This document shows positions 2,552 through 44,297 of a stretch of 64,000 bases of DNA, in pieces. The notes under the pieces are model-generated. The model did not search any database. It was not told where the DNA came from and saw nothing but the letters and a program-made list of their open reading frames with translations. The position numbers and the translations under genes are program-made. Each line of letters starts with the position of its first letter. Positions within the stretch are counted from its first letter, which is position 1. This stretch comes from an uncultured Chloroflexia bacterium (GTDB lineage: Bacteria > Chloroflexota > Limnocylindria > Limnocylindrales > CSP1-4), in NCBI GenBank assembly GCA_963741085.1, contig CAVUGM010000004.1, positions 141,988 through 205,987 of the forward strand, written 5' to 3'.

Positions 2552-3599
2552 ATGACCGACCAGCCCGGCCCGCCGCGCGACGAGCAGCGCCTCCCGGTTC
2601 CCCGGGAGCCCGTCGAGATCGCCCCCACGGAGCGCTTCAGCGCGCCAGCCCAGGCCCATTCGTTCGGGCTGACCCCCGAGCGGGCCGCCAAGATCGTGCG
2701 CCAGAGCGGCAGCTCGCGGTGGGTCGCGTTCCTGGCCGTGACCCTCGTCACGATCTTCGTCATCGGCTACTACTTCTACGAGCTTGGCGTCCCCGGCGTC
2801 CCCGATTCCAGCCGGCTGGAGAAGGAGGCCTCGGCGCAGGCGGTCACGAGCGTGCAGCGTGGCTACGCGCTGTTCGAGGCCAACTGTGCGCGCTGCCACG
2901 GCGCCCAGGGCCAGGGCTTGATCGGGCCGGTCCTCAACGATCAGGCGAAGCTCCTGACCCACCTGACCGAGAAGTACATCACGACGGTCCTCACGGTCGG
3001 CGGGCGCTACGTGTGCGGAGACGCGAACTCACTCATGCCAGCCTGGCTCGAGCCCAACGGGCCGCTCAACTACGTGCAGGTCGACGAGATCGTGTCGTTC
3101 CTGCGGGCGCCGAACACGATGACGTATACGGCGGTCGATCCGACGACGGGGGCGACGAGCCAGTCTCCCGGCTGGCGTGACCCCAACTACGTGATGCCGC
3201 CCGACCGCGACGCCGGTGCCCGCCTGCTGGAAGGACGCGTTCCTCACGGGCGGCAGCCCGGCTCCGTCGGGAGCGGCCTCGCCCGCGGCTTCCAGCCCGG
3301 CCGCCAGCACGGCACCCGGCCAGGGCACAGTCCTCACGCTGACGGCCGAGAACATCCGGTACGACAAGGTCACGCTGCAGGCGCCCGCCAGCCAGCCATT
3401 CCAGATCACGTTCACCAACAACGACGCCGGCACCCCCCACAACGTGGAGATCCTGCGCGACGGGATCTCGGTGTGGAAGGGCGAGATCTTCAGCGGCGTG
3501 GACATGCGTACGTACGACGTGCCGGCCCTCGCCGCGGGGTCCTACACGTTCGTCTGCTCGGTGCACCCGAGCATGAAGGGCACGCTCGAGGTCAAGTAG
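2552..3599 (+). CDS. Membrane-anchored cytochrome c fused to a C-terminal cupredoxin domain (frameshift near 3205)
   Basis: TM helix, CARCH, axial Met in LMPAW; second frame 3216..3599 has an SPAASS linker and type-1 Cu ligands PHN...CSVHPSM. Confidence 0.85.
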
Positions 3600-3645
3600 C
3601 AGGCTCCGGACCGCGCGGGTCCGGCCGACGGTCACGGGAGGAACG

Positions 3646-5132
3646 ATGGCGGCTCAGGCGCTCGGTCCCGGCACGACGATCGTCCGACGACGCGCCTTCT
3701 TCGGGCTGCTCGACGCCGGCGGCTGGGCCTGGGCGTTCCTCAAGGCCGTTCTTCTGGTTCGTCGTGATCGTCATGATGATCGCCTGGCTTCCGGACCGGG
3801 CGCTGTATGCCACCGTTCAGCCCACGATCGAGCTCGGGGTGCCGCTCTCGACGTTCAACAGCAGCCTCGACGTGACTCCGATCAACCTGTGCCCGCCGAC
3901 CATCCAGACGCTGCCCTGCCCGGCCCCGGTCGGCGCCGTCCTGCCCTGGCAGCCGAACCCGCCCGAGCTGGGTCTGCCCGCAGGCGCGCACCAACGCGGC
4001 GATCGTCGCCGCCGGCCGCCAGACGCTCCTCGTCGGCGGCTCGGACGGCAAGGCCGCCCAGGCGAGCGTCTTCGCCACCGTGCTCCGATCAGACGGCAAC
4101 ATCGACGGCTGGAACGCAGGCCCGGCCCTGCCGGCTCCCCGCGCCGGTGCCGCGGCGGTCTTCTTCTCGGGCTCGGCGTACGTCATCGGGGGCCTCGACG
4201 CCGGCGGCCAGCCGACCGACACGGTCTTCGTCGGCACGCCTGACGCCAGCGGCAACGTCACCTCGTGGACCGAGTCCACGGACCTCAAGCTCCCCGCCCC
4301 CATCGCCGATGCGACAGCGATCGTCACGGGGGACGGGATCTTCCTCGTCGGCGGGCGGGACGCCAAGGGCCCGGTCGCCAACGTCTGGAAGGCCCAGCTC
4401 GTCTCCACGACCGGCAAGCTCAAGCCCTGGCAGCCGGCCGCGGCGCTGCCGGCACCCCGCGAGGGGGCGACGGCGGTTCTCGCAGGGACGCACCTGTTCG
4501 TCTACGGCGGCGAGGACGCCAGCGGCCCGACCGCCGTGGTCGTGCGCGGTGAGATCGGCACGTCTGGCGACCAGCTCGGCCAGATCACCGGCTGGTCCAC
4601 GCCGACCGCGGATGCGGCCGCCACGACGAACCTCCCGAAGGCTGCCCGAGGCGCCGTCGGCTTCGTCTCCAACGGGACCCTCTACTACGTGGGCGGCGAG
4701 GGAAGCGGGACGCTGTACTGGACGATCCCCGACACCCAGGGCAACCTGACGGGCTGGAAGACGCTCGCCCAGAGCAACCTGCCGGCGAACCTGCAGCTTG
4801 TCGATGCTGCGCCGATCGTCAACGGCTCGAACGCCTTCCTGATCGGCGGCACGGCCGGTGGGGCGCCGACGCAGGGGATCGCGCGGGCGAACCTGGCGCC
4901 GCCCCTGCCGTTCTTCCGCCTCGGCCTCTTCTACGTCACCCTGCCGGCGCTCGGAATCCAGGGAGAGGTTGGCCAGCAGCTCTCGTACCTCGTCGCCGCC
5001 GGCGTGGCGACGACGGACTTCGTCATCCTGCTGATCATCGGTTACGCGTACAACCACCCCAAGCAGACCGGGCTCTTCTTCAACCGGATCCGCGACCGCC
5101 GCCGTCGCCGCGGTGGCCCACCCACTGCCTGA
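3646..5132 (+). CDS. Membrane-anchored Kelch-repeat beta-propeller protein (two frameshifts)
   Basis: N-terminal TM, repeats YVIGG, FLVGG, FVYGG, YYVGG, FLIGG, C-terminal TM and basic tail; pieced from ORFs starting at 3646, 2552 and 4080. Confidence 0.75.
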
Positions 5133-5139
5133 CCCCTCG

Positions 5140-6697: not shown

Positions 6698-6821
6698 GCG
6701 TTCTTCGTCCCCAGACCGCGCCGTTGTCGATCTCGACCGCGAGGGCAACCGACGGATGCCCTGCTGAGGAGATCGACGATGAGGCTGGTCTCGGACGCCC
6801 CCCGACGGCCATGATGGCACG

Positions 6822-9800
6822 ATGACGACGCGCTGCGACGCATGTGCGACCGAGAACCCGGCCACCTCCCGTTTCTGCGGGAGCTGCGGGGCCGCGCTCG
6901 GCCAGCGCTGCCCGGTCTGCTCGGCTCCGGTCATCCGTGGCTTCCGCTACTGCGGCTCATGCGGCACCGAGCTGGCGGCCGAGCCGACTCGCTCAACGAG
7001 CGGAGCCGACGGCACGGGCGAGTCTTTCGCGAGCCGGACCGGCGAGCCGATCGCCGTCGTGCCGAGCGCCGAGCGGCGACGCGTGTCGATCCTGTTCGTC
7101 GACCTCGTCTCCTTCACGGCCCGATCCGAGGACCGCGATCCGGAGGAGGTTCAGGAGCTGCTGGCCCGCTACTTCGAGTCCTGCCGCGGGATCATCGCCC
7201 GCTACGGCGGGACGGTCGAGAAGTTCATCGGCGACGCGGTCATGGCGATGTGGGGCGCGCCCGTCGCGCACGAGGACGACGCGGAGCGGGCCGTGCGGGC
7301 GGCCGTCGAGCTTGTGGCCGCGGTCGCCGCGGTCGGGGAGCAGGTCGGCCTGCCGCGGCTCGCGGCGCGGGCCGGGGTGGTCAGCGGCGAGGCGGCGGTC
7401 ACGGTGGGCGCCGTCGGCCAGGGAATGGTCGCCGGGGACGTGGTGAACACGGCCTCGAGGCTGCAGGCGGCGGCGCGAGCGGGGACCGTCCTCGTGGACG
7501 AGTCCACGTACCGCGCCGTTCACGGTTCCGTGACCTTCGAGCGGGCCGGGGAGCGATCGCTCAAGGGAAAGCGTCTGCCGGTCCCGGCCTGGGAGGCCGG
7601 AAAGGTCGTTGCGCGCCGACGAGGCGAGGGCCGGAGCGTCCTGCCCGAGGGCCCGCTGGTGGGCCGCGAAAGCCTCGTGGCGATCGTCAAGAGTCTCCTC
7701 GCGGCCGTCCGCGACGAGCGCAGCCCGAGGCTCGTCTCGCTCTTCGGCCAAGCCGGCCTGGGCAAGAGCCGAATCGCCTGGGAGCTCGAGAAGTACGTCG
7801 ACGGCGTGGTCGAGAAGATCCGCTGGCATCGGGCCCGCTCGCCGGCCTATGGCGAGGGTCTCGCGTTCTGGGCCCTGGCCGAGATGGTCCGCAGCCGGGC
7901 CGAGATCACCGAGGACGATCCCCCAGATGTCGCCCGCCGACGGCTCGCCGCCTGTCTTGCCACGTACGTCCCCGACGAGGGGGAGCGGCGCTGGATCGCA
8001 CCCTACCTGGCCGGGCTCATCGGCGCCGGCCCGGTGCCCGGTGGCGAGCGCGCCGAGGCCTTCGCCGCGTGGCGGACCTTCTTCGAGCGGGTCGCCGACA
8101 CCGCCACCACCGTCCTCGTGTTCGACGATCTGCAGTGGGCCGATCCCGGCCTGCTCGACTTCATCGAGTACCTCGTCGACGCCTCGACCGGGCGACCGAT
8201 CCTGGTCGTCACCCTCGCTCGGCCGCAGCTCCTCGACATGCGTCCCACGTGGGGCGCCGGCCGGCGCAACTTCATCGCCCTCCACCTCGACCCGCTCCCA
8301 CCCCCGGCCATGGCCCAGCTGCTCGGAGACCTCGCCCCGGGTCTGCCCGCCGACGTCGCCGAACGCATCCTCGAGCGGGCCGAGGGTATTCCTCTCTACG
8401 CCGTCGAGATCCTCCGGATGCTGGTCGACCGTGGCGCGCTCGAGGCGGTCGACGGGGTCTATGAGGTCCGGAGCCGGCTCGAGCGACTGGCCATCCCGGA
8501 GAGCCTCCACGCCCTCGTCGCTGCCCGGCTTGACGACCTCGAACCGATTGATCGGGCGCTCGTCCGCCACGCTGCCGTGCTCGGGCAGGCGTTCCTGCCG
8601 GCCGCCCTGGCCGCCATCGACGGAATTGAGGCCGGGGCAGTCGAGCCCCATCTCCGGCGGCTGGTTCAGCGGGAGCTCCTTTCGCTCGAGACCGACGAGC
8701 GGTCGCCGAGCCGCGACCGCTACCGGTTCGCCGAGGCGCTCGTCCGGGAGGTCGCCTATGGCACCCTGTCGCTGCGCGACAGGCGCGAGCGGCACCTGGC
8801 CGCCGCCGCCTACTTCGAGTCGGTCGACGATCCCGACCTCGCCGGCGCCATCGCCAGCCATGTCCTGTCGGCCTATCGGTCAGGGCCGCCAGCCCGGCCC
8901 GACCCGGGGCTCGCGACCCGAGCTGTGACCGCCCTGCGCGCTGCTGCCGATCGGGCGGCCGCGCTCCACTCGCCCGCGCAAGCGCTGGAGTACCTCGAGG
9001 GCGCCCTCTCGGTGACCGCCGACGACACCGAGCGGGCGCAGCTCTGGGAGCAGGCTGCGATCGCCGCCCAGGCGACCGCACGTCTGAAAGATGCCGCCAG
9101 CTATGCCCGTCAGGCCGTGGACTGGCACGCGGCCCACGGGGATCGCTCGGCCCGGGCGCGGACGACCGCGCGGCTGGGTTCCATCCTTGCCCTCGAGTAC
9201 GAGACCGAGGCGTCGATCGCCGTCGTCCGGGCCGCCCTCGACGAGCTCGTCGGCGACGGCGTCCTGGGCGACGATCCGGAGCTCGTCGGGCTCATGGCCA
9301 ACCTGGCCCGGGCATATCTCCTTGGCGGCCGGTTCGAGGACGCCGTCGCGTGGGCTGAACGGGCCATCCGGGAGGCCGAGCGGCTCGGCCTCCGGACGAT
9401 CGTAGCCGAGGCGCTGGCGACCAAGGGTGCGGCCCGGCTCGAGGAGGGCCGCAACGCGGAAGGGATCGGACTGCTTCGCGGATCCCTGGCGATGTCCGAG
9501 GAGCACGGCCTGGTCGTGCCGGCGCTCCGGGCCCGGAACAGCATCGCGGTGGGCCTGTTGACCGATGACCCGCGGGCCGCCTTCGCGATGTCGGATGCCG
9601 GGCTCGAGACGGCCCGGCGTCTCGGGCTGCTCGACGTGGCCGTGCGACTGGCCAGCAACTGGGCCGGGGCTGGGCTCGACATCGGGGCCTGGGACCAGGT
9701 CCTGGCTACGATCAGCGAGCTCGACCACGACGACCTGCCGGTCCCGGACCGGATCGACCTCGGCTCGGTGGTGGCCACGATCCTGACCTGGCGCGGCGAG

Positions 9801-10430
9801 CCGGACGCGGATGGCCGGTTCGCGCGCCTCGCGGCGCTCCTGGCGACCCAACCGGACACGCTAGCCTCGTCGGTGCTGCTGGCCCGTCGGTCGCTCGCGC
9901 TCCTGTCGCTCGGTCGAGCTCGCGAAGCCCTGGCTCACACGGAGGCGACCACCCTGGCGCTCTCTTCGACCGGCCTGTCGACGATGCTCCTCGAGAACTC
10001 GGTCCTGACGACCCGGGCGGCGCTCTGGGCGGCCGACCGCGGCCGCCTCGCAGGAGCGCTCGACGCGATCCGGGCGCGTGGACCCCGGGGCCGCTGGCTG
10101 ACCGCCGTGGCGACCACGCTCGCGGCCGGCCTCGACGCCCTCGACGGCAGGACCGCGGCGGCCCGCGACCGGTACGACCTCGCCGCCGCCCGCTGGCGGA
10201 CGCTGGATGTGCCGCTCCAGCTCGCCCTCTGTCAGGTCGAGGCCGCCCACTTCCTGCCGCCCGGAACTGTCGAGGCGGCGGCCGCGGCCGCCGAGGCCAG
10301 GACGATCCTCGCCGGTCTCGGCGCCGTGGCGTTCATCTCGAGGCTGGACGGGGATCTCGCCGAGCCGTTGTCGGCCGCGGCCACGGGCGGACCGCCGACG
10401 ACGGGCGACCCGCTTACCGGGTCTGCTTGA
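6822..10430 (+). CDS. Double zinc ribbon + class III nucleotide cyclase + STAND-type AAA ATPase + TPR protein
   Basis: Four CxxC pairs; LFVDLVSFT, EKFIGDAVM, GDVVNTASRLQ; Walker A GQAGLGKS, Walker B LVFDDLQWAD; helical repeats. Confidence 0.9.
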   Translation: MTTRCDACATENPATSRFCGSCGAALGQRCPVCSAPVIRGFRYCGSCGTELAAEPTRSTSGADGTGESFASRTGEPIAVVPSAERRRVSILFVDLVSFTARSEDRDPEEVQELLARYFESCRGIIARYGGTVEKFIGDAVMAMWGAPVAHEDDAERAVRAAVELVAAVAAVGEQVGLPRLAARAGVVSGEAAVTVGAVGQGMVAGDVVNTASRLQAAARAGTVLVDESTYRAVHGSVTFERAGERSLKGKRLPVPAWEAGKVVARRRGEGRSVLPEGPLVGRESLVAIVKSLLAAVRDERSPRLVSLFGQAGLGKSRIAWELEKYVDGVVEKIRWHRARSPAYGEGLAFWALAEMVRSRAEITEDDPPDVARRRLAACLATYVPDEGERRWIAPYLAGLIGAGPVPGGERAEAFAAWRTFFERVADTATTVLVFDDLQWADPGLLDFIEYLVDASTGRPILVVTLARPQLLDMRPTWGAGRRNFIALHLDPLPPPAMAQLLGDLAPGLPADVAERILERAEGIPLYAVEILRMLVDRGALEAVDGVYEVRSRLERLAIPESLHALVAARLDDLEPIDRALVRHAAVLGQAFLPAALAAIDGIEAGAVEPHLRRLVQRELLSLETDERSPSRDRYRFAEALVREVAYGTLSLRDRRERHLAAAAYFESVDDPDLAGAIASHVLSAYRSGPPARPDPGLATRAVTALRAAADRAAALHSPAQALEYLEGALSVTADDTERAQLWEQAAIAAQATARLKDAASYARQAVDWHAAHGDRSARARTTARLGSILALEYETEASIAVVRAALDELVGDGVLGDDPELVGLMANLARAYLLGGRFEDAVAWAERAIREAERLGLRTIVAEALATKGAARLEEGRNAEGIGLLRGSLAMSEEHGLVVPALRARNSIAVGLLTDDPRAAFAMSDAGLETARRLGLLDVAVRLASNWAGAGLDIGAWDQVLATISELDHDDLPVPDRIDLGSVVATILTWRGEPDADGRFARLAALLATQPDTLASSVLLARRSLALLSLGRAREALAHTEATTLALSSTGLSTMLLENSVLTTRAALWAADRGRLAGALDAIRARGPRGRWLTAVATTLAAGLDALDGRTAAARDRYDLAAARWRTLDVPLQLALCQVEAAHFLPPGTVEAAAAAAEARTILAGLGAVAFISRLDGDLAEPLSAAATGGPPTTGDPLTGSA

Positions 10431-20358: not shown

Positions 20359-20449
20359 GGTCGCGCGCCCGGGTGGGGTTGACGAGCGCCGGGCGGGTTG
20401 ACCAGCTCTCGCGCCCTCCAGTCGCGTGCCGCCGCGGCATCGGCTTCTC

Positions 20450-20478
20450 TTGACATGGCGCGTGCTCCGGCGTACGGT
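20450..20478 (+). promoter_or_regulatory. Sigma70-type promoter of the microcompartment operon
   Basis: TTGACA, 17 bp, TACGGT; followed by two ATGAGCA direct repeats (possible operator). Confidence 0.6.
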
Positions 20479-20506
20479 GCGCGCATATGAGCACGTGTCC
20501 GCGCGA

Positions 20507-21505
20507 ATGAGCATGCCCACGGAGAATGCCCTCCTGCGTGCCGACGAGCCGGCATCCGGCGAGACGCGGCTCATGCTTCGCGCGGCCCAGCTCTACTACC
20601 GCCTGAACCTGACCCAGGACGAGGTCGGCAAGCGGCTGGGTGTGAGCCGCTTCAAGGTCGGTCGCCTGCTCGACCGCGCCCTGCGCGAGTCCGCTGTCCG
20701 GATCGAGATCGTTCATCCCGCGGCGCGCTTGGTCGCGCTCGAGGACGCCCTCGTCACGAGGTTCGGCCTGCGAGCCGCGGTCGTCGTCGACGTGCCGGCC
20801 ACGGGGGAGGTGTCCGACGACGAGCTCCTGGCCCGGGAAGGTGTCGCTGCCGCGGCTGCGGCGCACCTGGCGTCCGTGCGCCCCGAGGGCGCCATCGGCG
20901 TGTCGTGGGGCCGCACGATGCTCGAGCTCGCGGCCCACCTTCGACCCGGCTGGACGTCGGCCGTCGAGATCGTGCAGCTGAACGGCGCCATCTCGCGATC
21001 GGCCCGTCCCACTCGCGCGCAGGAAGTCGTCGAGCGGTTCGGGACCACGACCGGGGCGGCGATCCGCCTGATGTCGGCGCCGGCGATCGTCGGCACGGAG
21101 GGGCTGCGCCGGGCGCTCGAAGCCGATGCCTCGGTCGGGGCGACGCTGGCGGCGGCCCGGCTCGCACCCACCGCGGTCTTCGGGATGGGCGTGCTCGGCC
21201 CTGACAGCGCGCACGTCGCCTCCGGGTACCTTGACAACGCGGATGTGGCCACGCTCGAGGCTGCCGGCGCGGTGGGTGACGTCCTCGGGCGCTTCCTTGC
21301 CAAGGACGGCCGGATCGCCCTCGCGTCCCTGGACGGCCGGACGGTGGGCCTGCCCCTCGAGGATCTCCGCGCAAAGCCGCTCCGGGTGGGCCTCGTCGCG
21401 GGCGCCGGCCGCGGACCGATCGCGCTGGGGGCGCTGTCGGCCGGCATCGTCTCGGACATCGTCGCGGACCAGCGGACGGCGGAATGGGTGCTCGCGCATG
21501 GCTGA
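20507..21505 (+). CDS. SorC/DeoR(Bacillus)-family sugar-binding transcriptional regulator
   Basis: [30 protein letters not shown]; IGVSWGRTM; [10 protein letters not shown]. Confidence 0.9.
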
Positions 21506-23774: not shown

Positions 23775-24083
<309 letters not shown>

Positions 24084-24092
24084 AACCCGGGT

Positions 24093-24121
24093 GGGTGCGC
24101 CGGCGGTCCGTCGGCGCACCC
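24093..24121 (+). terminator. Strong hairpin after the BMC-H gene (partial terminator or stabiliser)
   Basis: gggtgcgccggcg / cgtcggcgcaccc inverted repeat, no U-tract. Confidence 0.45.
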
Positions 24122-24146
24122 GGCCCGACCAGCAGGTGGTGTGAAC

Positions 24147-24435
24147 ATGCTGCTTGGACGAGTGACCGGGACGGTGGTCGCCAGCCGCAAGGAGCCCCTC
24201 ATCGAGGGCTGGAAGCTCCTCGTGGTGCGCCAGCTCGACGCCGCGGGTGCCGAGAGCCAGCGGGTACGTCGTCGCGGCCGACGCGGTCGGCGCCGGCGTG
24301 GGCGAGGTCGTCCTCTACGCCACGGGCAGCTCGGCCCGCCAGACCGAGATGACGAAGGACCGGCCCTGCGACGCCGTGATCATGGCGATCGTCGACACCT
24401 GGGAGGTCGGCGGGACCGAGGTCTTCCGCAAGTAG
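24147..24435 (+). CDS. Microcompartment pentamer (BMC-P, EutN/CcmL family) (frameshift near 24260)
   Basis: [17 protein letters not shown]; [29 protein letters not shown]. Confidence 0.9.
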
Positions 24436-24447
24436 CGGACGGGAGCG

Positions 24448-25915
24448 ATGAGCGAGCTCGACGAGCGCGAGATCCGGGAGATCATCGAACGGGTCCGCCG
24501 GCGCGTGGCGGCGGCCGGCGACGAGCGGCCCGGCGCGGGCCTGCGCGCGGAGGCGGAGCTGTCGGCCGCGGCGACGGCCGAGCTCGGCGACGGCATCCAC
24601 GCCACGATCGACGACGCGGTGGCGGCGGCCGCCCGCGCGTTCGCGGCCTTTGGCGGCCACGGCCTGGCCGCCCGCAAGGTCGATCATCGAGGCCATTCGG
24701 CGTGCGATGCTCGACCATGCCGAGCAGCTCGCGCGCATCGCTCACCAGGAGACCAGGCTCGGTCGGGTCGACGACAAGGTCGTCAAGAACCGCCTCGTCG
24801 CGTCGAAGGCGCCGGGTCCCGAGGACCTCGAGGTCCAGGCGATCACCGGCGACGCCGGGATGATGGTCACCGAGTGGGCGCCCGTTCGGCGTCGTGGCCG
24901 CCATCACGCCGGTCACCAACCCGACCTCCACGATCATCAACAACACGATCAGCATCGTGTCCGCTGGGAACGCGGTCGTCTTCAATGCCCACCCCAGCGC
25001 CCGGCGCTGCTCGGCCGAGACGATCCGGCTCATCAACCGGGCGATCGTGGCGGCCGGCGGACCGCCCAACCTCGTCACCGGCGTCGCCGACGCCGACGAT
25101 CGACAGCGCGCGCGCCCTCATGGCGCACCCTGGCGTGCGGGTCCTGCTGGTCACCGGCGGCCCGGGCGTCGTACGGGAGGCCCTCAAGACGGACAAGCGG
25201 GCGATCACGGCCGGCCCCGGCAATCCGCCGGCGGTCGTAGACCAGACCGCCGACATCGAGCGCGCCGCGCGCGACATCGTCCGCGGCGCCTCGTTCGACA
25301 ACAACGTCGTCTGCATCGACGAGAAGGTCGTGCTGGTGGTGGACTCGGTCGCCGACCGGCTTCTCCGCGCGATGAGCCAGAACGGCGCCTACCTGCTCAA
25401 GGAGCACGAGCTGCGCCGTCTCGAGCGCGTCATCTTCAGCGAGCCGGCCCAGCCCGGGAAGCCCGGCCACATGACGCCCGCCTGGATCGGCCAGGACGCG
25501 GCGAAGATCCTCGCCGAGATCGGGGTCCAGGTGGAGCCGGCCCCGCGCCTGCTCGTCTGCCGATGTGCCGCGTGACCACGGGCTGGCCTGGACGGAGCAG
25601 ATGATGCCGGTGCTTCCGATCGTCCGGGTCGGGACGGTGGACCAGGCGATCGAGCTGGCCGTCCGCATGGAGCATGGCTTCCGTCACACGGCGTCGATCC
25701 ATTCCACCAACGTCGAGACGATCACGAAGATGGCCCGCGCCATGAACTGCAGCATCTTCGTGACGAACGGCCCGAACGTCGCGGGCCTCGGCGAAGGTGG
25801 CGAAGGCTTCACCTCGTTCTCGATCGCCAGCCCGACCGGCGACGGCCTCACGCGCCCGCGGACCTTCTCGCGCGAGCGGCGGATCACCGTCGTCGGCGCG
25901 CTGCGGATCGTGTGA
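24448..25915 (+). CDS. CoA-acylating aldehyde dehydrogenase (EutE/PduP family) with encapsulation peptide (several frameshifts)
   Basis: [57 protein letters not shown]; N-terminal [13 protein letters not shown]. Confidence 0.9.
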
Positions 25916-26646
25916 CGTGCCTCCCCGATCCGCGTCCGCGCCGCCATCCGGGGCCGAGCTCGTCGTGGAGCCCGCCCTCGGCCTCCTGGAGTTCGATTCG
26001 ATCGCCGCCGGCATCGAAGCCGGCGACGCGATGGCGAAACGCGCCCCGATCGACGTCATCCGGGCAGGCACGGTTCACCCCGGCAAGTACCTGGTCCTCG
26101 TCGGCGGGGCGGTCGCTGACGTCGAGGAGGCGCTCGACGCGGGCCGCGACGTCGGAGCTGCCGCGCTACTCGATGCCGTCTTCCTGCCCAACGTCCACCC
26201 GGATGTCGTCGGGGCATTGCGCGGGGAGCGGCTCGACGCCGCCGGAGAGGCCCTGGGGGTCATCGAGACGTCGACCGTGGCGGCGATCCTCGAGGCGGCC
26301 GACGCGGGCCTCAAGGGAGCCGACGTGCGGCTCCTCGAGATCCGGCTGGCCGACGACCTGGGCGGCAAGGGCGTACCTGCTCTTCGACGGCCCGGTTGCG
26401 GACGTCGAGGCGGCTGTCGAGATCGGGGCCGCGCGTATCGCGGGTTCGCCCGGGATGGTTCGGCGCGTGATCGCCCGGCTGCACGTCGAGATGGCCGAGA
26501 ACCTGGCAGCCGACGGCCGCTTCGCCGCCCGGATCCACGCCACGGCCGGCACGGGTAGCGGAGCCGGGCCGGGCACGGGTGCCAGCCTGCGGTCCGCGAC
26601 CCCGCGTCCGACCGCGCGGCCGCGCCCCACGAAGGGAGCGCGGTAG
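25912..26646 (+). CDS. Microcompartment tandem-domain shell protein, PduT-like (frameshifts)
   Basis: ALGLLEFDSIAAGIEAGDAMAK..PGKYLVLVGG and ALGVIET..AADAGLKGADV..LGGK. Confidence 0.85.
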   Translation: MTCLPDPRPRRHPGPSSSWSPPSASWSSIRSPPASKPATRWRNAPRSTSSGQARFTPASTWSSSAGRSLTSRRRSTRAATSELPRYSMPSSCPTSTRMSSGHCAGSGSTPPERPWGSSRRRPWRRSSRRPTRASREPTCGSSRSGWPTTWAARAYLLFDGPVADVEAAVEIGAARIAGSPGMVRRVIARLHVEMAENLAADGRFAARIHATAGTGSGAGPGTGASLRSATPRPTARPRPTKGAR

Positions 26647-26648
26647 CC

Positions 26649-27017
26649 TTGCAGCTCGCGCGCGTCGTCGGGACCGTCGTCGCCACGGTCAAGACCCCCG
26701 GCCTGGCTGGGGTCAAGCTGCTCGTCGTGCAGCCGCTCGATCGCGACCTCCAGCCGGTCGGGGGCCAGGTGGTCGCGGCCGACGCGGTGCACATGGCCGG
26801 GCCCGGCGAGCTCGTCTACTTCGTCGCGGCCCGCGAGGCTGCCGCGTCCATGCCCGATCCGTTCGTGCCGGTCGACCATGCGATCGTCGGGATCGTCGAC
26901 GCGATCGGCTCGGTAGGGCCACACGCACGGATGGGATCGGCGGCCCTGGCCCCCGCCCGGGGGCCGGCGGTGACGCAGCCGGCACGGAAACCACGCGCCC
27001 GGAGGAGCAGGACGTGA
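26649..27017 (+). CDS. Microcompartment pentamer (BMC-P)
   Basis: LARVVGTVVATVK..KLLVVQP..VAAD..AGPGE..VDHAIVGIVD. Confidence 0.9.
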   Translation: MQLARVVGTVVATVKTPGLAGVKLLVVQPLDRDLQPVGGQVVAADAVHMAGPGELVYFVAAREAAASMPDPFVPVDHAIVGIVDAIGSVGPHARMGSAALAPARGPAVTQPARKPRARRSRT

Positions 27018-28060: not shown

Positions 28061-30745
28061 CTACTTCGTCGCGGACGGGTCGACGACCCGGCCCATGAAC
28101 AGGACCGCACCGGTCGCGACGTCGCGCAGGACGAACAGGAATGGGTGGTCCAGGCGGAGCGTGATCGTCTTGAGCGGACTCGGTCCGCCACCGGTGCTCA
28201 TGCCGACGGCGGTTGCCGCTGCGGCTTCGGTGCCCTTCTCGTCGACGTCGATATTGGCCTGGTGCACGACCTTGCTGATGTAGATGCCATCGCCGGATGA
28301 CCGGGGGACGTGGATCCCCGCGAAGTCGGCGCCCTCGGGCTGGAAGGCGAGCGGCATGCCGGCCGACGCCAGGACCTTGTTGAGCACCGTGCGGGTCTCG
28401 ATCCGGAAACGAGGCATCGACAGCTCCAGGTCGTACGGGTAGCAGCCGCCCATCCCCCAGCCACTGGGACACGCGAGCCCGCCCTCCCATCCCCGTCGCT
28501 CACGGTCGAGGGCCGCGGTGATCGAGGCAAGTCGGGCCGGCGTCAGGCCGCGTTCGAAGGAGGCGAGGCTCGTCGGCATGATGAGCGTCATCGCGAGCGG
28601 CTTCCCGCCCTCCGGGCTCATGTACCGGAGCTCGGTGGCCTGCCAGCCGCTGCCCCTGGAATACGGGGCGACCGTGTCGAACCCGAAGTGCCCGACCATC
28701 GTCGGTACCGAGACGCGGCTGCCATCCAGGCGTGTGAAGGTCCGCGACGCGGTCTCCTCGATCTCGAACCATTTCTCCCACATTGCCTTGAGGTAGACCG
28801 CGTTGACCAGGTAGAGCCGTGTGTCGGTCGTCACGTCCGGGGCCAGGAGGAGCTCCGGGATCCGGCCACCGGTCTTCGACTTCACCCAGCTGTTGATCGT
28901 CCGCCGTGCCCCATCCGGGTTCCGGATGTAGTCGACAAGGCGCAGGCCGGCACCGAACGTGGCGGCGACCTGGTCGAGGTAGCCCTGCACGATCGGCCAA
29001 CCTGCCTGGGCCCACGTGCCGTTCGCCAGGGCCAGCGTCTGCTGGCGGGCGGTGCCGTCTGGGTCCTTCCAGGCCACGTTCCGAGATTCCAGCTCCTGCG
29101 TCAGCGCGTTGAGGCCGGGTCCGAGGGCATTCCAGCCCGGCGTGTGCAGGACCGCGTCCATCTGCGTGGCCGTCGCGCCTTTCGACCCGGCGCGGGCCAT
29201 CCCCAGGGCGACGACGACGCTCGTGGGTGAGAAGACGGCGTTCCTCTTCGCATCCAGGGTGCCGTCGGCCAGCATCCGCCTGTACAGGTCGAGGCCGAAG
29301 GCGGTGATCGAGGCGGACGCCTTCCTGGCGTCGGCCGGGTTCGCCGTCGCCCGCGGGCTGTTCGAGCGGGCCAGGGTTGCCGGCTGCTTCACCGGCGGCG
29401 GGAAGGATGCGAGGTTGCCGGGGACGTACCGGACGGCCGCAGCGACGGGCTCGGGGCACCAGGGCGTGCTCGGCTCGCCGACATAGCCGGCGTCGCCGCC
29501 GACGAGGAGGAGCGTGCGATCCGGAAGCGTGACGAACGTGCCGCCCTCGCGCGGCTGCGCCAGCGGCGCCGCCGGCGACCACGTAGCGGTCGCGGGGTCG
29601 TACAGCGACGCCTCGACGAGCGCTGGGCCAGTACCCGGGTTGTCACTGCTGCCGACCCGCCCTATCCCGCCGGCGACGAACACCCGCCCGTCTCCGAGGA
29701 GCGTGGCGCTCGCGTTCGAGGCCGGTGCAGGCATCGCAGCCACCTGGACCCAGGTCCCGCCCGTGTCGAGCGGGTCGAAGCGGTCGGCAGCCGCGGTGAC
29801 CTCTCCGTCCACGGTGCCGCCGGCGACGAGCGCGCCGCCTCCCGGCAGCGCCGCCAGGACGAAGTCACGGCGCGGCGCAAGCATGCCGCCGGCCGCCGTC
29901 CAGGCTCCCGTCGACGGGTCGTAGATCTCGGCGGACGCCAGCGGGTCGCCGGACGGGCCCTCGCCGCCCACGACGAGCACTCGTCCATCAGAGAGCGTGG
30001 TGGACCGCGGGCCGCTCCGGGCCGTCGTCATGGACCCGGTCTCCGACCACGACCCCGTCTCCGGGTCGTAGAGTTCGGCGCTCGCGAGGACGCGGCTGGC
30101 GGTCGCGTCCACGTAGGCGCCACCCGCAACGAGCACGGTTCCGTCGGGAAGAAGTGCCGCGGTCGGCTCTGTCCGGGCGACGTTCAAAAGCCCGCTCGCC
30201 GTCCACGCGCCGGCCTTCGGATCGTAGAGCTTCGTGCTCGAGTAGGAGCCGAACGCCCCTTCGGCGGGGCTGGCCGAGGTGAGCCCGCCGACAACGAGGA
30301 CCCGCCCGTCGGGCAGGCCCACCGCGACGAAATCGGTGCGCGGTGCGTTGAGGCTGCCGGTTGCCTTGGAGGTCCGGGCGGGCGGGTCCAGGACCTCGGC
30401 CTGGACGCTGTCGTCCCAGGCTCCGCCGGGGGTGCAGATGTTGTCGTTGCCGACGATGAGGACGCGGCCGTCGGCGAGCGTCACCGCGTGCGCGCTCGCG
30501 CGCCCGAGGGCGAGCGCGCCGGCCGCCTGCCAGCGGCCTTCCGCCACGGGCGCGGTCGGGGTGACCGTGCCCGGGGTCGAATTCGGAGATGGCGATGCCG
30601 GGGTCGCGGCGGGAGTGGAAGGTGGCGGTGGCGCCGACGCCGAGGCCGGCGGGAAGGGTGATGTCGGCGTCGAGCCGCAGCCGGCGACGATGATCGCGAT
30701 CGCGATGGCTGAGAGCGTCCTGCGCGGGCCGAGGCGCTGCATCAT
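28061..30745 (-). CDS. Lipoprotein: Kelch beta-propeller fused to a serpin
   Basis: Lipobox IVAGC; repeats LxDGRVLxxGG..AELYDP; serpin FSPTS, LVNAVYLKAMW, DVDEKGTEAAAAT, DHPFLFVL. Confidence 0.9.
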   Translation of the reverse strand: MMQRLGPRRTLSAIAIAIIVAGCGSTPTSPFPPASASAPPPPSTPAATPASPSPNSTPGTVTPTAPVAEGRWQAAGALALGRASAHAVTLADGRVLIVGNDNICTPGGAWDDSVQAEVLDPPARTSKATGSLNAPRTDFVAVGLPDGRVLVVGGLTSASPAEGAFGSYSSTKLYDPKAGAWTASGLLNVARTEPTAALLPDGTVLVAGGAYVDATASRVLASAELYDPETGSWSETGSMTTARSGPRSTTLSDGRVLVVGGEGPSGDPLASAEIYDPSTGAWTAAGGMLAPRRDFVLAALPGGGALVAGGTVDGEVTAAADRFDPLDTGGTWVQVAAMPAPASNASATLLGDGRVFVAGGIGRVGSSDNPGTGPALVEASLYDPATATWSPAAPLAQPREGGTFVTLPDRTLLLVGGDAGYVGEPSTPWCPEPVAAAVRYVPGNLASFPPPVKQPATLARSNSPRATANPADARKASASITAFGLDLYRRMLADGTLDAKRNAVFSPTSVVVALGMARAGSKGATATQMDAVLHTPGWNALGPGLNALTQELESRNVAWKDPDGTARQQTLALANGTWAQAGWPIVQGYLDQVAATFGAGLRLVDYIRNPDGARRTINSWVKSKTGGRIPELLLAPDVTTDTRLYLVNAVYLKAMWEKWFEIEETASRTFTRLDGSRVSVPTMVGHFGFDTVAPYSRGSGWQATELRYMSPEGGKPLAMTLIMPTSLASFERGLTPARLASITAALDRERRGWEGGLACPSGWGMGGCYPYDLELSMPRFRIETRTVLNKVLASAGMPLAFQPEGADFAGIHVPRSSGDGIYISKVVHQANIDVDEKGTEAAAATAVGMSTGGGPSPLKTITLRLDHPFLFVLRDVATGAVLFMGRVVDPSATK

Positions 30746-30869
30746 GGCCTCCCATGCGACGTCCGCGACGATTGCGATCGCGGCAGCGCCGAGTACCCGT
30801 CAGACGCACGCCGGGCCGCCGGTGTTACCAGCCCGACCTGCGGCCCCGCGATGCGCGGCGGCGGGACTC

Positions 30870-38635: not shown

Positions 38636-39187
38636 TGAAGAACCGACTTCAGCAGCTGGTCGAGCTCGGCGGCGTCGCGAACCTGGCCCACCTGGACGTC
38701 GCGAATGATGCCGTCGCGGTCGACGAAGAAGGTCTGGGGCGGCGCAAGAACCTTCCACGCGGCGCCGATGGCGCGATCGGGGTCGGTCGACGGTCGCCCA
38801 GGTCGCCTTCTGCTCCGACACGAAGGATCGGGCAGGGGAAACGTCGTCCTTGTAGAGAGCCCCCACGACCACCAGCCCATCGGCGGCGTGGCGCGCGGCG
38901 GCCGCCTGGAGGAGCGGGAACTCGTCGCGGCACGGGCCGCACCAGCTCGCCCAGAAGTTCACGAGCACGGGAGATCCCTTCAGCGAGGCGAGGTCGAAGT
39001 GGCTGCCGTCCAGTGTCGTGCCGGCGAGCGCCGGCGCCGGCTTTCCGATGAGCGGCGACCCGATCGTGATGATGCCCGGAGACGCGCCCGGGGCCGTGGC
39101 GCTCGAGGACGTTGCTCCTCCGCCGCAGGCGGCCAGGGCGACGGCGACGGCGAGCAGGACGGCAACCCGCCGGGAGGTGGCATGCAT
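38632..39187 (-). CDS. TlpA/ResA-type thiol:disulfide oxidoreductase lipoprotein (frameshift near 38785)
   Basis: Lipobox LAAC, VNFWASWCGPC, PPQTFFVDRDG. Confidence 0.88.
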
Positions 39188-39320: not shown

Positions 39321-39609
39321 GGCTCTCCTACTTCACCGTGAGGGTGCCGGTCATGTTCGGGTGGACGGTGCAGACGAAGCCGTAGGTCCCCGCGGGAAGG
39401 GCCGGCACGTCGTAGGTCCGGCTGTCCACCCCGCTGAAGATCTCGCCCTTCCAGACCTCGGCCCCGTCGGGCTGATCCCTGTGGATCGAGACGTTGTGGG
39501 GGATCCCCGCGTCGTTGTTGGTGAAGACGATCTGGAACGGCGTGTTCGCCGGCGCCTCGAGGCTCGTCGTGTCGTAGGCGACCCCCGAGGCGGCGATCTT
39601 GAGGACGAC
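39321..39609 (-). repeat. Copy 1 of a ~285-bp direct repeat encoding a cupredoxin domain
   Basis: Near-identical to 43050-43339. Confidence 0.9.
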
Positions 39610-40543
39610 GGCCGCGCCGCCGCCCCCGCCGCCGAGGAGGCCGGGCTCGCCGCACGCGGAGCCGGCCGGGGCTCGCGGGCCGCGCCCGACGCGCCCGGGG
39701 CCTGGGCGGCCGCGCCGGAGGGCAGCGCACGGCGATGTCCGCTCCACCGGTGCTCCGCCGACGTGCCGCTGCGCGGCGGGAACACCCCGCCCGCGACCAG
39801 CACGCGACCCGACGAAGAGGACGGCGAAGACGATGAGCGTGCCCGTCGGGAAGCGTGGCGCCGGGATGTTCTCCAGGTGACCGGTCACGTCGGCCCTCTC
39901 GACCTGGCGGTACTCCTTGCGGGCGTCGTTGAGCCAGCCGAGGAGGCCGATCACGATCATGAGGATTCCAGCCGGCGACGATCGCGGGGTTGAGCACGAG
40001 GCCGAGCAGCAGCGCGCGGACGCCATCGCCGCGAGGAGCGGCCGGAAGGAGGGCCCGGGAACGTGGACACCTTCGGGCGGGCCCGCGGCCGCGACCGCGG
40101 GCAGGGCGGTCGGCGGCTCAAGCCGTCGTACTCCCGGCTGGCCTCGCGGCCCCAGTAGAGGAGCGCGCCGACCATCGAAAGCGAGGCCGATGGCAAGCGC
40201 GACGACTCCCGAACGGCTCCACGCGATCGTGGAGGTCCCGGACGTGGCGCCCGGCGTGATCTTGATGAAGAGCGTCGAGAGGACGAGCGCGAACGCGCCT
40301 CCCGCCGCGAGGAACGGAGCCAGGCTCGGGCCCGGCATGTGGATGCCTGCCGGGAGCCGGCGCGACGGGGAGTGGCCGCGTGACCTGGGGTCCGGCCGCG
40401 GCATAGCGCCGGACGACCCGATGCCAGGTACACCGCGACGACGATCGCCAGGAGCGCGAGTGGGGATCAGGAGGAGGAGCGCTGCCCCAGTCCGGTGAGA
40501 CGAGCGAGCCGACGACCTCGAGGAACTTGTCCCAGAGCGACAT
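39328..40543 (-). CDS. Membrane protein (CtaF/subunit IV-like segments) with C-terminal cupredoxin domain (several frameshifts)
   Basis: Repeated GIHMPGPS..P / GVHVPGPS..P + TM pairs; PHN...CTVHPNM. Confidence 0.7.
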
Positions 40544-40761: not shown

Positions 40762-41406
40762 CTAGAGCAGGTAGAGCGTGGAGAAGAGGACGATCCAGAC
40801 GACGTCGACGAAGTGCCAGTAGATCGACGTCGCCTCGACCATGTCGTGGTGGCGCGCCGAGAACTGGCCCGGCCAGGCCACGGTACAGCACGACACCGAC
40901 AGCATGATCGCCCCACCCGCCACGTGCGCGCCGTGGAAGCCAGTCAGCGTGTAGAACGTGCTGCCGAAGGCGGTGTCGGTGATCCCGAACTCGAGCTGGG
41001 TGTAGTCCCACATCTGGCCGGTCAGGAAGAGGAGGCCGAGGACGACCGTCACTCCCGTCGCCCTCAGGAAGGCGCGTCCGATCGCCCCGCCGGATCGCCC
41101 AGACGCCCGACCTGCATGGTGACCGAGCTGAGCACCAGGATCGCGGTCAGGGTGCCGGCGACGGCCAGGTGCTCGGGCGTGTGCAGGTTGAAGGGCTCGT
41201 AGGGCCGCTCGTTGACGAGCGGCGGCCACTGCGGCGACGTCGATCCGGACGTTGAAGTAGGCGGCAAAGAGCCCCGCGAAGAACATCACCTCGGAGGCGA
41301 TGAAGAGGATCATCCCGAGGATCGGGTTGCTGATCCCCCGCTGGGCGTGGCCGTGCCACTCGCCGATCCCCGTGTCGTGGACGGCGACGGTCGGGTTGGC
41401 GGCCAT
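40762..41406 (-). CDS. ctaE: Cytochrome c oxidase subunit III (frameshifts)
   Basis: GMILFIASEVMFF, FYTLTGFHGAHV, YWHFVDVVW. Confidence 0.92.
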   Translation of the reverse strand: MAANPTVAVHDTGIGEWHGHAQRGISNPILGMILFIASEVMFFAGLFAAYFNVRIDVAAVAAARQRAALRALQPAHARAPGRRRHPDRDPGAQLGHHAGRASGRSGGAIGRAFLRATGVTVVLGLLFLTGQMWDYTQLEFGITDTAFGSTFYTLTGFHGAHVAGGAIMLSVSCCTVAWPGQFSARHHDMVEATSIYWHFVDVVWIVLFSTLYLL

Positions 41407-41408
41407 CG

Positions 41409-43046
41409 TCAGTGCCCCGCCTGCAGCTGTGGCGGGTCACTCGCGTGGCGCTGGTCGAAGACAGGGCGTTCGGAGCGGATCGGCGGGAGCCGGTCGAAGT
41501 TCCACGGCGGCGGCGGCGAGGAGGTCGCCCACTCCAGGGTGTTGCCCTCCCACGGGTCGTCGCCGGCCGGCTCGCCGCCGCGCAGCGACGTGAAGATGTT
41601 CCACAGGAACGGCAGCATCCCCACGGCGATCGTGAAGCCACCGATCGTCGCCAGCAGGTTGAGGTCGTTCCAGCCCGCGGTGGCGCTGTAGTCGGCGATC
41701 CGGCGGACCATCCCGGATGTCCCCAGGATGTGCATCGGGAAGAAGGTCAGGTTCATGCCGATGAAGATCAGGATGAAATGGATCCTCCCCAGGCCCTCGT
41801 TCAGGCGGCGGCCGAACATCTTCGGGAACCAGTAGTAGGTGGCAGCGAAGATGCCCATGATCGAGCCGCCGAAGAGCACGTAGTGGATGTGAGCGACGAT
41901 CCAGTAGGTCGCGTGGACGTGGTAGTCGACCGGGACCGAGGCGAGGAAGGCGCCGTCGATGCCGCCGATGAGGAAGAGCATCAGGAAGCCCACGGCGAAC
42001 AGCATCGAGGTCGTGAACGTCAGCTTGCCGCGGTACATCGTCGCGATCCAGTTGAACATCTTCACGCCCGTCGGGACCGCGATCAGGAAGGTCATGAGGC
42101 TGAAGAACGGCAGGTAGACGCTGCCGGTCGTGAACATGTGGTGGGCCCAGACGGAGAAGCCCAGGGCGCCGATCGCGGCTGTCGCGAAGACGAACGCCTT
42201 GTAGCCGAAGAGGGGCTTGCGGCTGAAGGTCGGGATGACCTCGCTCACGATCCCCATCGCCGGCAGGATCATGATGTAGACCGCCGGGTGGCTGTAGAAC
42301 CAGAAGACGTTCTGCCAGAGGATCGCGTTGCCGCCCTGGAGCTGGGTGTTGAAGAAGCTCCCGCCGAGGTTGCGGTCGATGAAGAGCATCATCAGCGCCG
42401 AGCGTCAGGACCGGGGTTCCCATCAGGACGAGCACGCTCGTCACGAGGATCGTCCAGACGAAGATCGGCATCCGGAAGAGGGTCATCCCCGGAGCCCGCA
42501 TCTTGAAGATCGTGACCAGGAAGTTCACCGACCCGAGGATCGAGCTGGTGCCGACGAGGAGCAGGGCGACGATCCAGAGGTCGGTGCCGATGCCCGGCGA
42601 GAACTTGTCCTGGGCCAGCGGGCTGTAGCTCGTCCAGCCCTCCGCCGCGGCGCCGCCGAGCGGGAAGCCGAGGATGGCGATGAGGGCCGACAGGGCAGCA
42701 GCCAGAACGAGAGGGCGTTGATGCGCGGGAACGCCATGTCCGGCGCCCCGATCATCAGCGGCACGAAGTAGTTGCCGAAGCCCGCCAGGAACGGGATGAC
42801 GACCCAGAAGATCATCACCGACGCGTGCATCGTGAAGACCTGGTTGTAGGTGGACTCGCTCATGAACTGGAGGCCCGGCTGGGCCAGCTCGGAGCGGACG
42901 GCCAGGGCGAGGAGGCCGCCGATGAGGAAGAGCAGCAGCGAGTTGAAGAAGTAGAGGATGCCGATCTTCTTGTGATCGGTCGTCGTCAGCCAGTCGTAGA
43001 CGCCCGAACGGTAGGTGGCCGCGGGGCGGAGCGCAGTCGTCGCCAT
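41409..43046 (-). CDS. ctaD: Cytochrome c oxidase subunit I, A2 subtype (two frameshifts)
   Basis: [51 protein letters not shown]. Confidence 0.95.
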
Positions 43047-43049
43047 CGG

Positions 43050-43339
43050 GGCTCTCCTACTTCACCGTGAGGGTGCCGGTCATGTTCGGGTGGACGGTGC
43101 AGGCGAAGCCGTAGGTCCCCGCGGGAAGGGCCGGCACGTCGTAGGTCCGGCTGTCCACCCCGCTGAAGATCTCGCCCTTCCAGACCTCGGCCCCGGTCGG
43201 GCTGTCCTTGTGGATCGAGACGTTGTGGGGGATCCCCGCGTCGTTGTTGGTGAAGGCGATCTGGAACGCCGTGTTCGCCGGCGCCTCGAGGCTCGTCGTG
43301 TCGTAGGCCACCCCCGAGGCGGCGATCTTGAGGATGACC
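43050..43339 (-). repeat. Copy 2 of the cupredoxin-domain direct repeat
   Basis: Near-identical to 39321-39609. Confidence 0.9.
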
Positions 43340-44297
43340 GACTGGCCGGGCGCCTGGCTCGCGCCCGGGGAGGCGCTCGTGCCGGGGGCGGCGCTGGAAC
43401 CGGGGGCGGCGCTCGTGCCGGGGGCCGCGCTCGCGGGGCTGCTTGCCGACGGGGCCGGAGTCGGCGTCGGAGGCGGCGTGAGCGCCTGCTTGAGCCAGGC
43501 GTCGTAGGCGGCGCGGCTCTGGACGACGACCTCGAACTCCATCTCCTGGTGCAGCAGCCCGCAGAACTGGGTGCACTGGCCTCGGTACGTGCCTTCGCGG
43601 TCGGCAAGGAACTGGATCACCTGGTCCTTGCGCGGCGTGATGTCGCGCTGGTACAGGAAGGCCGGCACGTAGAACGAGTGGATCACGTCGTTGGAGTGCA
43701 TCTGCAGCTCCACGGTCTGGCCGACCGGGACGTGCATCTGGGGCGGGGTCCAGCCGATGCGGTTGCCGTTGGGGGGCGGCACGCCGATCACCGTGACGCA
43801 CTTGCCCTTGTTCTGGGGCGCCCCGCAGTCCTCCCAGCGGATGTCCGGGGGCGCGTAGACGAACTCCCACTGCCACTGGTAGGCGACGACGCCGATGCGG
43901 ACCGGCGGGTCCGGCTGATGGGCATCGACCGTGTTGAGGGTCTGCCACGAGAGGACGAACAGGGCCAGCACGAGGGCGATCGGGATCGCCGTCCAGATGA
44001 TCTCGAGGCGGTTGCTGCCGTGGATCTGCGGCGGCAGCTCGTCGTCGCCCCGGCGGCGGCGGTAGCGCAGCACCGCGAAGAGGATCAGCCCCTCGACCAG
44101 GAAGAAGATCGCGGCCCCGATCACGAAGACGATGTCGTACAGGTTGCTGGGTCGCCTACGCCCTGGGTCGTGGCCGGATCGGGCGGCATCGCGGAGCGGA
44201 TGTTGAAGTCCGAGCACGCGGACACGAGGAAGGCGACCGCCAGCAGCAGCAGCGCGAGCATCGCGCGGCGGTGCGGCGTCTTCCGGTTGAACGTCAT
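43057..44297 (-). CDS. ctaC: Cytochrome c oxidase subunit II with extra C-terminal cupredoxin domain (frameshift near 44150)
   Basis: Lipobox LVSAC, LEIIWTAIP, QWQWEF, DVIHSF, CTQFCGLLHQEM (CuA); SAAPG linker; PHN..CTVHPNM. Confidence 0.92.

Follow-up and report, generated by a model that had tools for sequence, protein, structure and literature searches.

The stretch of DNA analysed here (the window; 64,000 nucleotides, GC ~72%) comes from an uncultured Chloroflexia bacterium of soil and freshwater (Limnocylindrales-type Chloroflexota) and corresponds to G000:C4:141988-205987 in a 3.14-Mb genome (G000) assembled into 6 contigs. It encodes both termini of an aerobic respiratory chain: a bc-type complex at its left end and, ~35 kb further on the minus strand, an oxidase operon. 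Homologous cupredoxin domains are fused to a cytochrome c in the former and to two membrane proteins in the latter. The span singled out by the first-pass annotation (2552-44297) takes in ~33 kb of non-respiratory genes separating the two operons. The features of the quinol-oxidising operon are listed below, with G004, a genome of the same genus, as reference; the cupredoxin positions in this and the following list were placed by local tblastn.

3..314 (+): GltD-like NAD(P)H iron-sulfur flavoprotein, 3' end (4Fe-4S part; Fer4 matches), leading the bc operon
361..1086 (+): cytochrome b6-type subunit (petB-like; PF00033, E 2.1e-44; 97% identity to G004)
1227..1817 (+): subunit IV of a split cytochrome b (petD-like; PF00032; 92% against G004 by tblastn)
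1798..2517 (+): Rieske iron-sulfur protein (PF00355; 92% against G004 by tblastn)
2552..3599 (+): membrane-anchored monohaem cytochrome c with a Ser/Ala/Pro linker and a cupredoxin (3333-3596); frameshift at ~3201
3646..5129 (+): Kelch-repeat membrane protein, directly after the cytochrome c-cupredoxin gene; frameshifts at ~3747 and ~3979

Consecutive genes thus carry PF00033, PF00032, PF00355 and PF00034, so that one operon holds the split cytochrome b, the Rieske protein and the c-type haem subunit; judged by these matches, complex III is a b6-type Rieske/cytochrome b complex. The open reading frame (ORF) from 2552 starts with an N-terminal membrane helix, followed by a Cytochrom_C domain with the haem motif CARCH. 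The oxidase operon comprises the following genes.

38638..39187 (-): TlpA-like thiol:disulfide redoxin at the end of the operon (AhpC-TSA/Redoxin matches, tblastn); frameshift at ~38784
39328..40543 (-): Cyt_c_ox_IV-like six-helix membrane protein with a long linker and a cupredoxin (39331-39600); many frame errors
40762..41409 (-): oxidase subunit III, short form (CoxC; PF00510, tblastn)
41409..43061 (-): oxidase subunit I (CoxA); frameshifts at ~42402 and ~42693
43057..44324 (-): oxidase subunit II (CoxB), with two transmembrane helices, then the CuA domain and, on a Pro/Ser/Ala linker of ~45 residues, a cupredoxin (43060-43341); frameshift at ~44150

The oxidase is of the aa3 type (family A) and is the single haem-copper oxidase found in G000 by its subunit I, next to one cytochrome bd. 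COX2_TM (PF02790) and COX2 (PF00116) are matched on the CoxB ORF (43057-44586), and the CuA ligands H164, C199, C203, H207 and M210 (H...C-x3-C-x3-H-x2-M) are invariant in 40 sequences. The CoxB core is nearest to subunit II of the Thermus caa3 oxidase (2yev_B, E 3.3e-51) and to actinobacterial CtaC (8hcr_E, 6adq_E). The match to 2yev_B stops where the haem c domain of that protein starts, so that the first-pass comparison with caa3 oxidases holds for the point of fusion but not for the kind of domain: cytochrome c Pfam families are absent from CoxB of both the window and G004, and its C-terminal domain is Cupredoxin_1.

Cupredoxin domains at four attachment sites

What are the fused domains? 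Pfam Cupredoxin_1 (PF13473) and Copper-bind (PF00127) score above their cut-offs on all three window ORFs, and the motif PHN...C.VHP.M is present in the cupredoxins; tblastn, Pfam and motif agree with the first-pass annotation on three homologous domains and on where they lie, as do the Cytochrom_C and COX2 matches on two of their partners. In an alignment of 45 domains covering all attachment sites and three families of the class (f1, f2 and f4, see below), exactly five columns are invariant in 45/45 sequences: H44, C86, H89, M92 and G94. The first four of these are the type-1 copper ligands and align with the ligand region of plastocyanin. Their spacing, C-x2-H-x2-M, is amicyanin-like in the genus of the window, and the loops are slightly longer elsewhere. 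An AlphaFold2 model of the domain (mean predicted local distance difference test (pLDDT) 95.2) has eight strands, and Foldseek matches it with probability 1.00 to amicyanin (E 5.7e-8), three auracyanin structures (TM-score 0.80-0.82) and plastocyanin. Structural comparison with auracyanin B gave a Z-score of 13.1 at 31% identity, and the best sequence matches in the Protein Data Bank are plastocyanin (E 1.7e-6), auracyanin B and amicyanin. Together, this predicts a type-1 (blue) copper cupredoxin of the amicyanin/auracyanin kind, with conserved ligands from which copper binding would be expected.

The identity of the third carrier protein becomes visible only in the intact G004 orthologue, which matches PF12270 (Cyt_c_ox_IV, the actinobacterial CtaF family) at 34.2 bits against a cut-off of 26.9; locus L105 reaches 41.7 bits, and two IV-like proteins of family f2 stay below the cut-off (24.2 and 22.9 bits). 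The window's own ORF has no PF12270 match because of its frame errors. Its earlier designation as subunit-IV-like agrees with the profile match of the relative. The predicted model of the G004 protein consists of six membrane helices, a disordered stretch (residues 257-304, pLDDT <50) and the cupredoxin, in keeping with the flexible arms postulated before. A fold search with this whole model returned mainly cupredoxin matches and barely probed the membrane part. Its two HxPGPS hairpins weakly match, at profile level, the N-terminal helices of a long subunit III (1m56_C, E 1.9e-4) and also C-terminal extensions of subunit I (2yev_A, 6kob_A; E <0.01, range 1.9e-4 to 9e-3), which we regard as a lead towards, rather than proof of, kinship with these subunits. 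Loop charges and a crude hydropathy scan would place the C-terminus, and with it the cupredoxin, outside the membrane.

A fourth copy, which was not visible to the first-pass annotation, is encoded on another contig of G000, C5. Although frameshifted, it encodes a signal peptide ending in a lipobox (...AAALAGC), a linker of ~60 residues and the domain, and G004 holds an intact equivalent (lipobox ...ALSAC; both lipoboxes were recognised by eye). This copy is probably a lipid-anchored carrier in the style of auracyanin A, which would be able to diffuse in the membrane. In G011, a second, divergent cupredoxin follows right behind the lipoprotein copy (locus L172:1889); it keeps H, C, H and M and has a longer insert. 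Of three further copper proteins of G000 (G000:C3:245818-246054, C6:135291-135542 and C3:337307-337561; loci L193-L195), one is a lipoprotein whose plastocyanin-like domain keeps H, C, H and M and is accompanied by long Ala/Ser/Pro repeats; another lipoprotein has a pair of cupredoxin-like domains, and in the third a cupredoxin-like domain precedes a heavy-metal P-type ATPase.

The tethers differ in length, from ~25 residues on complex III to ~40-55 on CoxB, ~50 on the IV-like protein and ~60 on the lipoprotein. The CoxB and cytochrome c genes encode Ser/Ala/Pro linkers, as described earlier; in the IV-like gene of the window, frame errors make the linker appear rich in Arg and Gly. In CoxB, the CuA methionine and the type-1 histidine are 105 residues apart in the window and 82-107 in 36 f1-like proteins, as opposed to 71-72 in three f4 proteins, where next to no linker is left. 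Both rigid and flexible versions therefore exist.

Fusions in relatives and their distribution

Since the window as assembled shows no continuous frame for two of the three fusion genes, we turned to relatives (in the genome collection, metagenome-assembled genomes). In G004 (95% complete), all three fusions are intact, with Pfam matches for both halves above cut-off: cytochrome c plus cupredoxin in 344-346 amino acids, CoxB plus cupredoxin in 424 (as translated) and Cyt_c_ox_IV plus cupredoxin (PF12270 and PF13473) in 400. With the window CoxB as query, matches were obtained in 39 of 41 related genomes; they cross both domains without a stop in five genus genomes (G002, G004, G005, G006 and G020), and in further genomes both parts lie in one open frame. 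In a collection of 5.8 billion proteins, a cupredoxin Pfam was found on 103 of the best 120 matches to CoxB, on 118 of the best 120 to cytochrome c and on 115 of the best 120 to the IV-like protein, the last set also carrying PF12270 in 46 of its 120 members. The fusions are therefore real, present as intact frames in relatives scoring 92-95% complete and in more than 100 metagenomic protein clusters. The prospect raised at first pass, that they might vanish once frames were mended, has not come true, and intact fused ORFs in so many independent assemblies and in protein clusters of several sources refute assembly or gene-calling artefacts as their origin, to which we assign practically no probability.

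How, then, are the broken frames of the window to be understood? Against G004, tblastn locates frame changes at ~3201, 3747, 3979, 38784, 40345, 42402, 42693 and 44150, and several more, including compensating pairs, fall within the IV-like gene, giving at least 8 in ~12 kb of respiratory genes. That number, and the clustering in one gene, might suggest genuine frameshifts in a strain whose respiratory genes are decaying into pseudogenes. We consider this highly improbable. Identity to G004 between the breaks amounts to 62-97% (tblastn), with no stop-ridden decay, and the essential oxidase subunit I itself carries two frameshifts. Moreover, the assembly scores 56.75% complete despite just 6 contigs, as indel errors throughout would give. 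Short contigs of relatives from 3 sequencing runs lack a base exactly at 3746, and a relative's contig bridging 2920-3289, and with it the 3201 region, is one letter shorter than the window, with a single gap somewhere in this span. The window strain itself is absent from the sequencing runs listed (top share <=0.09 of sampled words). The frame breaks thus look like assembly-wide indel error rather than decay. Indel density is high across the window, and any single-gene reading in the G000 assembly needs a relative as guide.

We then asked how the fusions are distributed in a class sample of 151 genomes. Oxidase loci were read in 32 representatives, the complex III fusion was searched for in 30, and the complex III operon was read directly in six (five f4, one f2). 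The 151-genome tally includes G102, G122, G131 and G157, and the tally outside the class G218, G328 and G345, all flagged as unpublished; no other claim uses them. By family, the counts are as follows.

f1 (family of the window): complex III cytochrome c with cupredoxin in 9/10; CoxB with cupredoxin in 10/11; IV-like protein with cupredoxin in 9/11 (one is truncated at the end of its contig)
f2 (1.1-Mb genomes, same order): cytochrome c with cupredoxin in 3/3; CoxB unfused in 4/4; IV-like protein with cupredoxin (336-residue and 366-379-residue proteins)
f4: two Cytochrom_C stretches and no cupredoxin in 4/5 complex III operons, the fifth being broken; CoxB with cupredoxin in 11/11; IV-like protein short, with cupredoxin in 0/11
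f3: none of these fusions in 6

The copper domain may accordingly sit on the donor complex, the acceptor complex or both, and in f4 a second haem c domain replaces the donor copy. That a second haem c appears just where the donor cupredoxin is missing is the strongest argument we have for the domain linking haem c and CuA. Outside the class, 4/4 sampled genomes of family f19 match across CoxB and the cupredoxin. Judged by the number of metagenomic clusters, bacteria of the host group are frequent in metagenomes from soil, sediment and freshwater.

Some variation in the neighbourhood of these genes was recorded along the way. In f2 (G028, locus L191; G027, locus L192), two IV-like proteins with a cupredoxin are encoded, one after coxC (336-residue frame) and the other (366-379 residues) on the strand opposite to the bc operon and ~4 kb away from it. 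The GltD-like flavoprotein, full-length in G004 (locus L018:1-1704; Pyr_redox_2 and Fer4), is kept upstream of petB in f1, f2 and f4. The pair of cytochrome c-cupredoxin and Kelch genes is present in f1 and f2; within the five f4 operon loci read, where the cytochrome c is dihaem, no Kelch gene was seen.

Is there another carrier that could connect the two complexes? Six-frame profile searches of G000 returned one Cytochrom_C and one Cytochrome_CBB3 match only, both at the bc operon, and the same held for five genus genomes that are 92-95% complete (exactly one match to each family, always at the bc operon; 5/5). With a single cytochrome c domain in the six genomes searched, a copper relay between complex III and complex IV is the economical reading.

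Concerted evolution of the cupredoxin copies

The CoxB, IV-like and lipoprotein copies of G000 share ~290 nearly identical bases that end ~10 bases past the stop codon, and the IV-like and lipoprotein copies share their linker too; the flanks differ right up to sharp tract boundaries. We compared 31 domains from 8 genus genomes, leaving aside both fragments of the lipoprotein copy that is broken in G000, as well as the divergent extra domain of G011. Protein identity averages 89.6% (median 94.7%) between different sites of the same genome, compared to 74.8% between the same site in different genomes. Consistently, the domain tree groups by genome, and the attachment-site label requires 20 changes on it (minimum 3; mean of shuffled labels 17.5). 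In their DNA, 14 of the 45 pairs taken from a single genome reach 99% identity or more, a likeness that extends to third codon positions, as against a between-genome maximum of 91.5%.

Which copies match depends on the genome: CoxB, IV-like and lipoprotein copies in G004; cytochrome c, IV-like and lipoprotein copies in G011; and, in both G005 and G006, CoxB with IV-like and cytochrome c with lipoprotein. All four nearly match in G007 and G022, and the copies of G013 are 90-96% alike in DNA. Collapsed or mis-polished repeats are an improbable cause of the identical copies, given the sharp flanks and the differing pairings that recur in 8 genomes. By this pattern, copies within one genome have been homogenised by repeated gene conversion among four otherwise unrelated genes, which implies that they are functionally interchangeable. 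As in bacterial interlocus gene conversion elsewhere, within-genome copies are near-identical down to third codon positions, orthologues differ and tract ends are sharp. Unlike in those cases, the converted unit is a 280-base-pair domain cassette residing in four unrelated genes of one electron-transfer pathway, and the set of matching copies varies from genome to genome. That a redox domain evolves in concert across four unrelated genes is uncommon and, in population-genetic terms, marks the copies as functionally interchangeable.

Proposed electron transfer from haem c to CuA

What is the physiological meaning of a cupredoxin attached in four places, namely to the haem c subunit of complex III, to CoxB after CuA, behind the last helix of the IV-like protein and to a lipid anchor? 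The function we favour, with good though not complete confidence, is that of a relay: tethered type-1 copper domains would take electrons from haem c to CuA and so probably do the work of a free, or fused, cytochrome c. All four domains should face the outer side of the cytoplasmic membrane. The b6-type complex would oxidise quinol, and the electron would leave its Rieske centre for the anchored haem c and next reach the copper domain on the same polypeptide, held by its ~25-residue tether. This domain might then reduce CuA directly, or the electron might hop via the copies on the oxidase (arms of 40-55 residues) and on the lipid anchor, before passing from CuA to haem a and the binuclear centre. 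Direction and route are those suggested by gene content and domain placement. Auracyanin-type potentials of ~+200 to +240 mV fall between a menaquinol-type high-potential chain and CuA. Chloroflexota are not known to possess an outer membrane, which would explain why every carrier is tethered. The first-pass idea that copper domains stand in for the cytochrome c shuttle is partly supported, as the economical reading; the supercomplex that it had considered, without the lipoprotein copy in view, is not required because that copy can diffuse in the membrane.

A more far-reaching version, which we put forward tentatively and would sooner bet against than on, is that the four interchangeable domains form a hopping network on the outer face of the membrane, a "protein copper wire" in which self-exchange between identical domains, each on its flexible arm, would carry electrons from complex III to the oxidase. 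Tolerance of gene conversion, or even selection for it, would then be expected because each copy must dock the same partners as well as the other copies, and the occurrence of a dihaem cytochrome c in some members of the class and of cytochrome c plus cupredoxin in others would record a change of carrier metal.

Several observations weigh against the copper relay. In a supercomplex of the actinobacterial type, haem c could reach CuA directly, and the copper domains would be dispensable for the main path. The structural neighbours of the domain include FtrB and EfeO-type cupredoxins, which handle metal ions. Our search for other carriers covered two Pfam cytochrome c families, multihaem and unusual c-type cytochromes lying outside its reach. 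The window's own genes are broken as assembled, and no RNA run containing the window stretch is among the runs listed. Finally, CoxB and the cupredoxin found no match in G001 (91% complete) and G021, both of the window genus, nor in any sampled genome of genus g5; the respiratory module is not universal in the family and seems missing from some close relatives.

The first of these points leads to the alternative that fares best, though we judge it unlikely: complexes III and IV might form a supercomplex of the actinobacterial type in which haem c feeds CuA directly, with the cupredoxins serving as side ports to other redox enzymes or donors, reached by way of the lipoprotein copy and further blue-copper lipoproteins, or as electron stores. 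The oxidase does contain a CtaF-type subunit (PF12270), CoxB resembles CtaC from solved actinobacterial supercomplexes (8hcr_E, 6adq_E) no less than its caa3 counterpart, the f4 dihaem cytochrome c resembles QcrC, and G000 encodes further blue-copper lipoproteins. Yet the same f4 genomes combine their dihaem cytochrome c with a CoxB cupredoxin at the 71-72-residue spacing, which puts the copper domain beside CuA, on the main path; a domain fused at both ends of one pathway is hard to explain by side reactions; and neither operon encodes a partner enzyme.

Could the domains be metallochaperones or copper stores that serve the assembly of CuA and CuB, instead of electron carriers? TlpA-like redoxins are known from CuA maturation and one of them ends the oxidase operon, and the top VIA matches include the copper chaperone CupA along with FtrB/EfeO cupredoxins. 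However, the full His-Cys-His-Met set with amicyanin spacing, kept in 45/45 domains, is the signature of electron-transferring type-1 sites and unlike that of known chaperones, and none would be expected on the cytochrome c of complex III. We therefore give this explanation very little weight.

The proposed copper relay has parallels in known systems, each of which departs from it in some respect. Fused or anchored carriers (caa3 oxidases, actinobacterial cytochrome cc, auracyanin) are a known safeguard against the escape of respiratory electrons in bacteria without a periplasm. In caa3 oxidases (Thermus thermophilus 2yev_B, Bacillus CtaC), an electron-entry domain likewise occupies the C-terminus of subunit II right after CuA. 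Here, however, it is a type-1 cupredoxin instead of haem c, it is connected in the window genus by a low-complexity linker of ~40 residues rather than a short fixed connection, and a second copy resides on another oxidase subunit. The actinobacterial bcc-aa3 supercomplex with its dihaem QcrC (6adq, 6hwh, 7q21, 8hcr) also does without a free carrier, the cytochrome c subunit of its complex III bearing a further redox domain that bridges to CuA; it shares the CtaF-type subunit (PF12270) and a CtaC near to CoxB, and the sister family f4 is truly dihaem. In the present case, by contrast, the second domain is a predicted copper domain, and cytochrome b is split and of the b6 type. The CtaF-like protein has two helices (six in the model) more than the four-helix CtaF of Actinobacteria and bears a cupredoxin of its own. 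Cytochrome b6f and plastocyanin (cyanobacteria, chloroplasts) offer a further precedent: there, too, cytochrome b is split into b6 and subunit IV and is joined by a Rieske protein and a single c-type haem subunit, with a copper protein of the plastocyanin kind as acceptor. The acceptor here is covalently fused and would feed an oxidase, not a photosystem, and a class-I cytochrome c takes the place of cytochrome f as haem subunit.

Another parallel is offered by the auracyanins, separate proteins of ~140 residues, of which auracyanin A is lipid-anchored, as is the lipoprotein copy here. Auracyanins A and B of Chloroflexus and Roseiflexus (2aan, 1qhq/1ov8, 6kol) are membrane-tethered blue-copper carriers of Chloroflexota with a fold similar to that of the window domains. 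According to PMC10873879, auracyanins work with alternative complex III. The domains of the window differ from them in being ~95 residues long, in their amicyanin-length ligand loop and in their attachment, by gene fusion, to bc-type complex and oxidase subunits.

In the full-text literature (supplements and subscription journals being outside the scope), we found no published description of any of these fusions, and term look-ups in PMC8239418, PMC8756737, PMC13212565 and bioRxiv 10.1101/2021.08.23.457424, two of which concern this lineage, returned no passage mentioning them. Tethered carriers as such are already known; new are copper in place of haem, the multiplication of the tether and gene conversion among the copies. 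One copper domain on the donor complex, the acceptor complex and a lipid anchor is a combination not met in the literature searched. The alternatives realised in relatives, a dihaem subunit or a one-sided tether, make this lineage a natural experiment on haem versus copper carriers and on rigid versus flexible tethering. Being small, the domains should express easily, which opens the idea to spectroscopy and kinetics.

Between the two operons, the window encodes a cyclase-type regulator, ABC and MFS transporters, a microcompartment locus, a Kelch-serpin protein and nucleoside phosphorylases. The regulator is large (6783-10427), combining a double zinc ribbon, an adenylate/guanylate cyclase domain and an AAA_16 ATPase. 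The sugar-phosphate/microcompartment locus (20402-27014) comprises a Sugar-bind regulator, an RpiB/DeoC fusion frame, a BMC shell protein, a EutN pentamer and an aldehyde dehydrogenase fragment. At 28064-30799 (-), a single long frame joins Kelch repeats to a C-terminal serpin domain (PF00079, E 1.7e-83).

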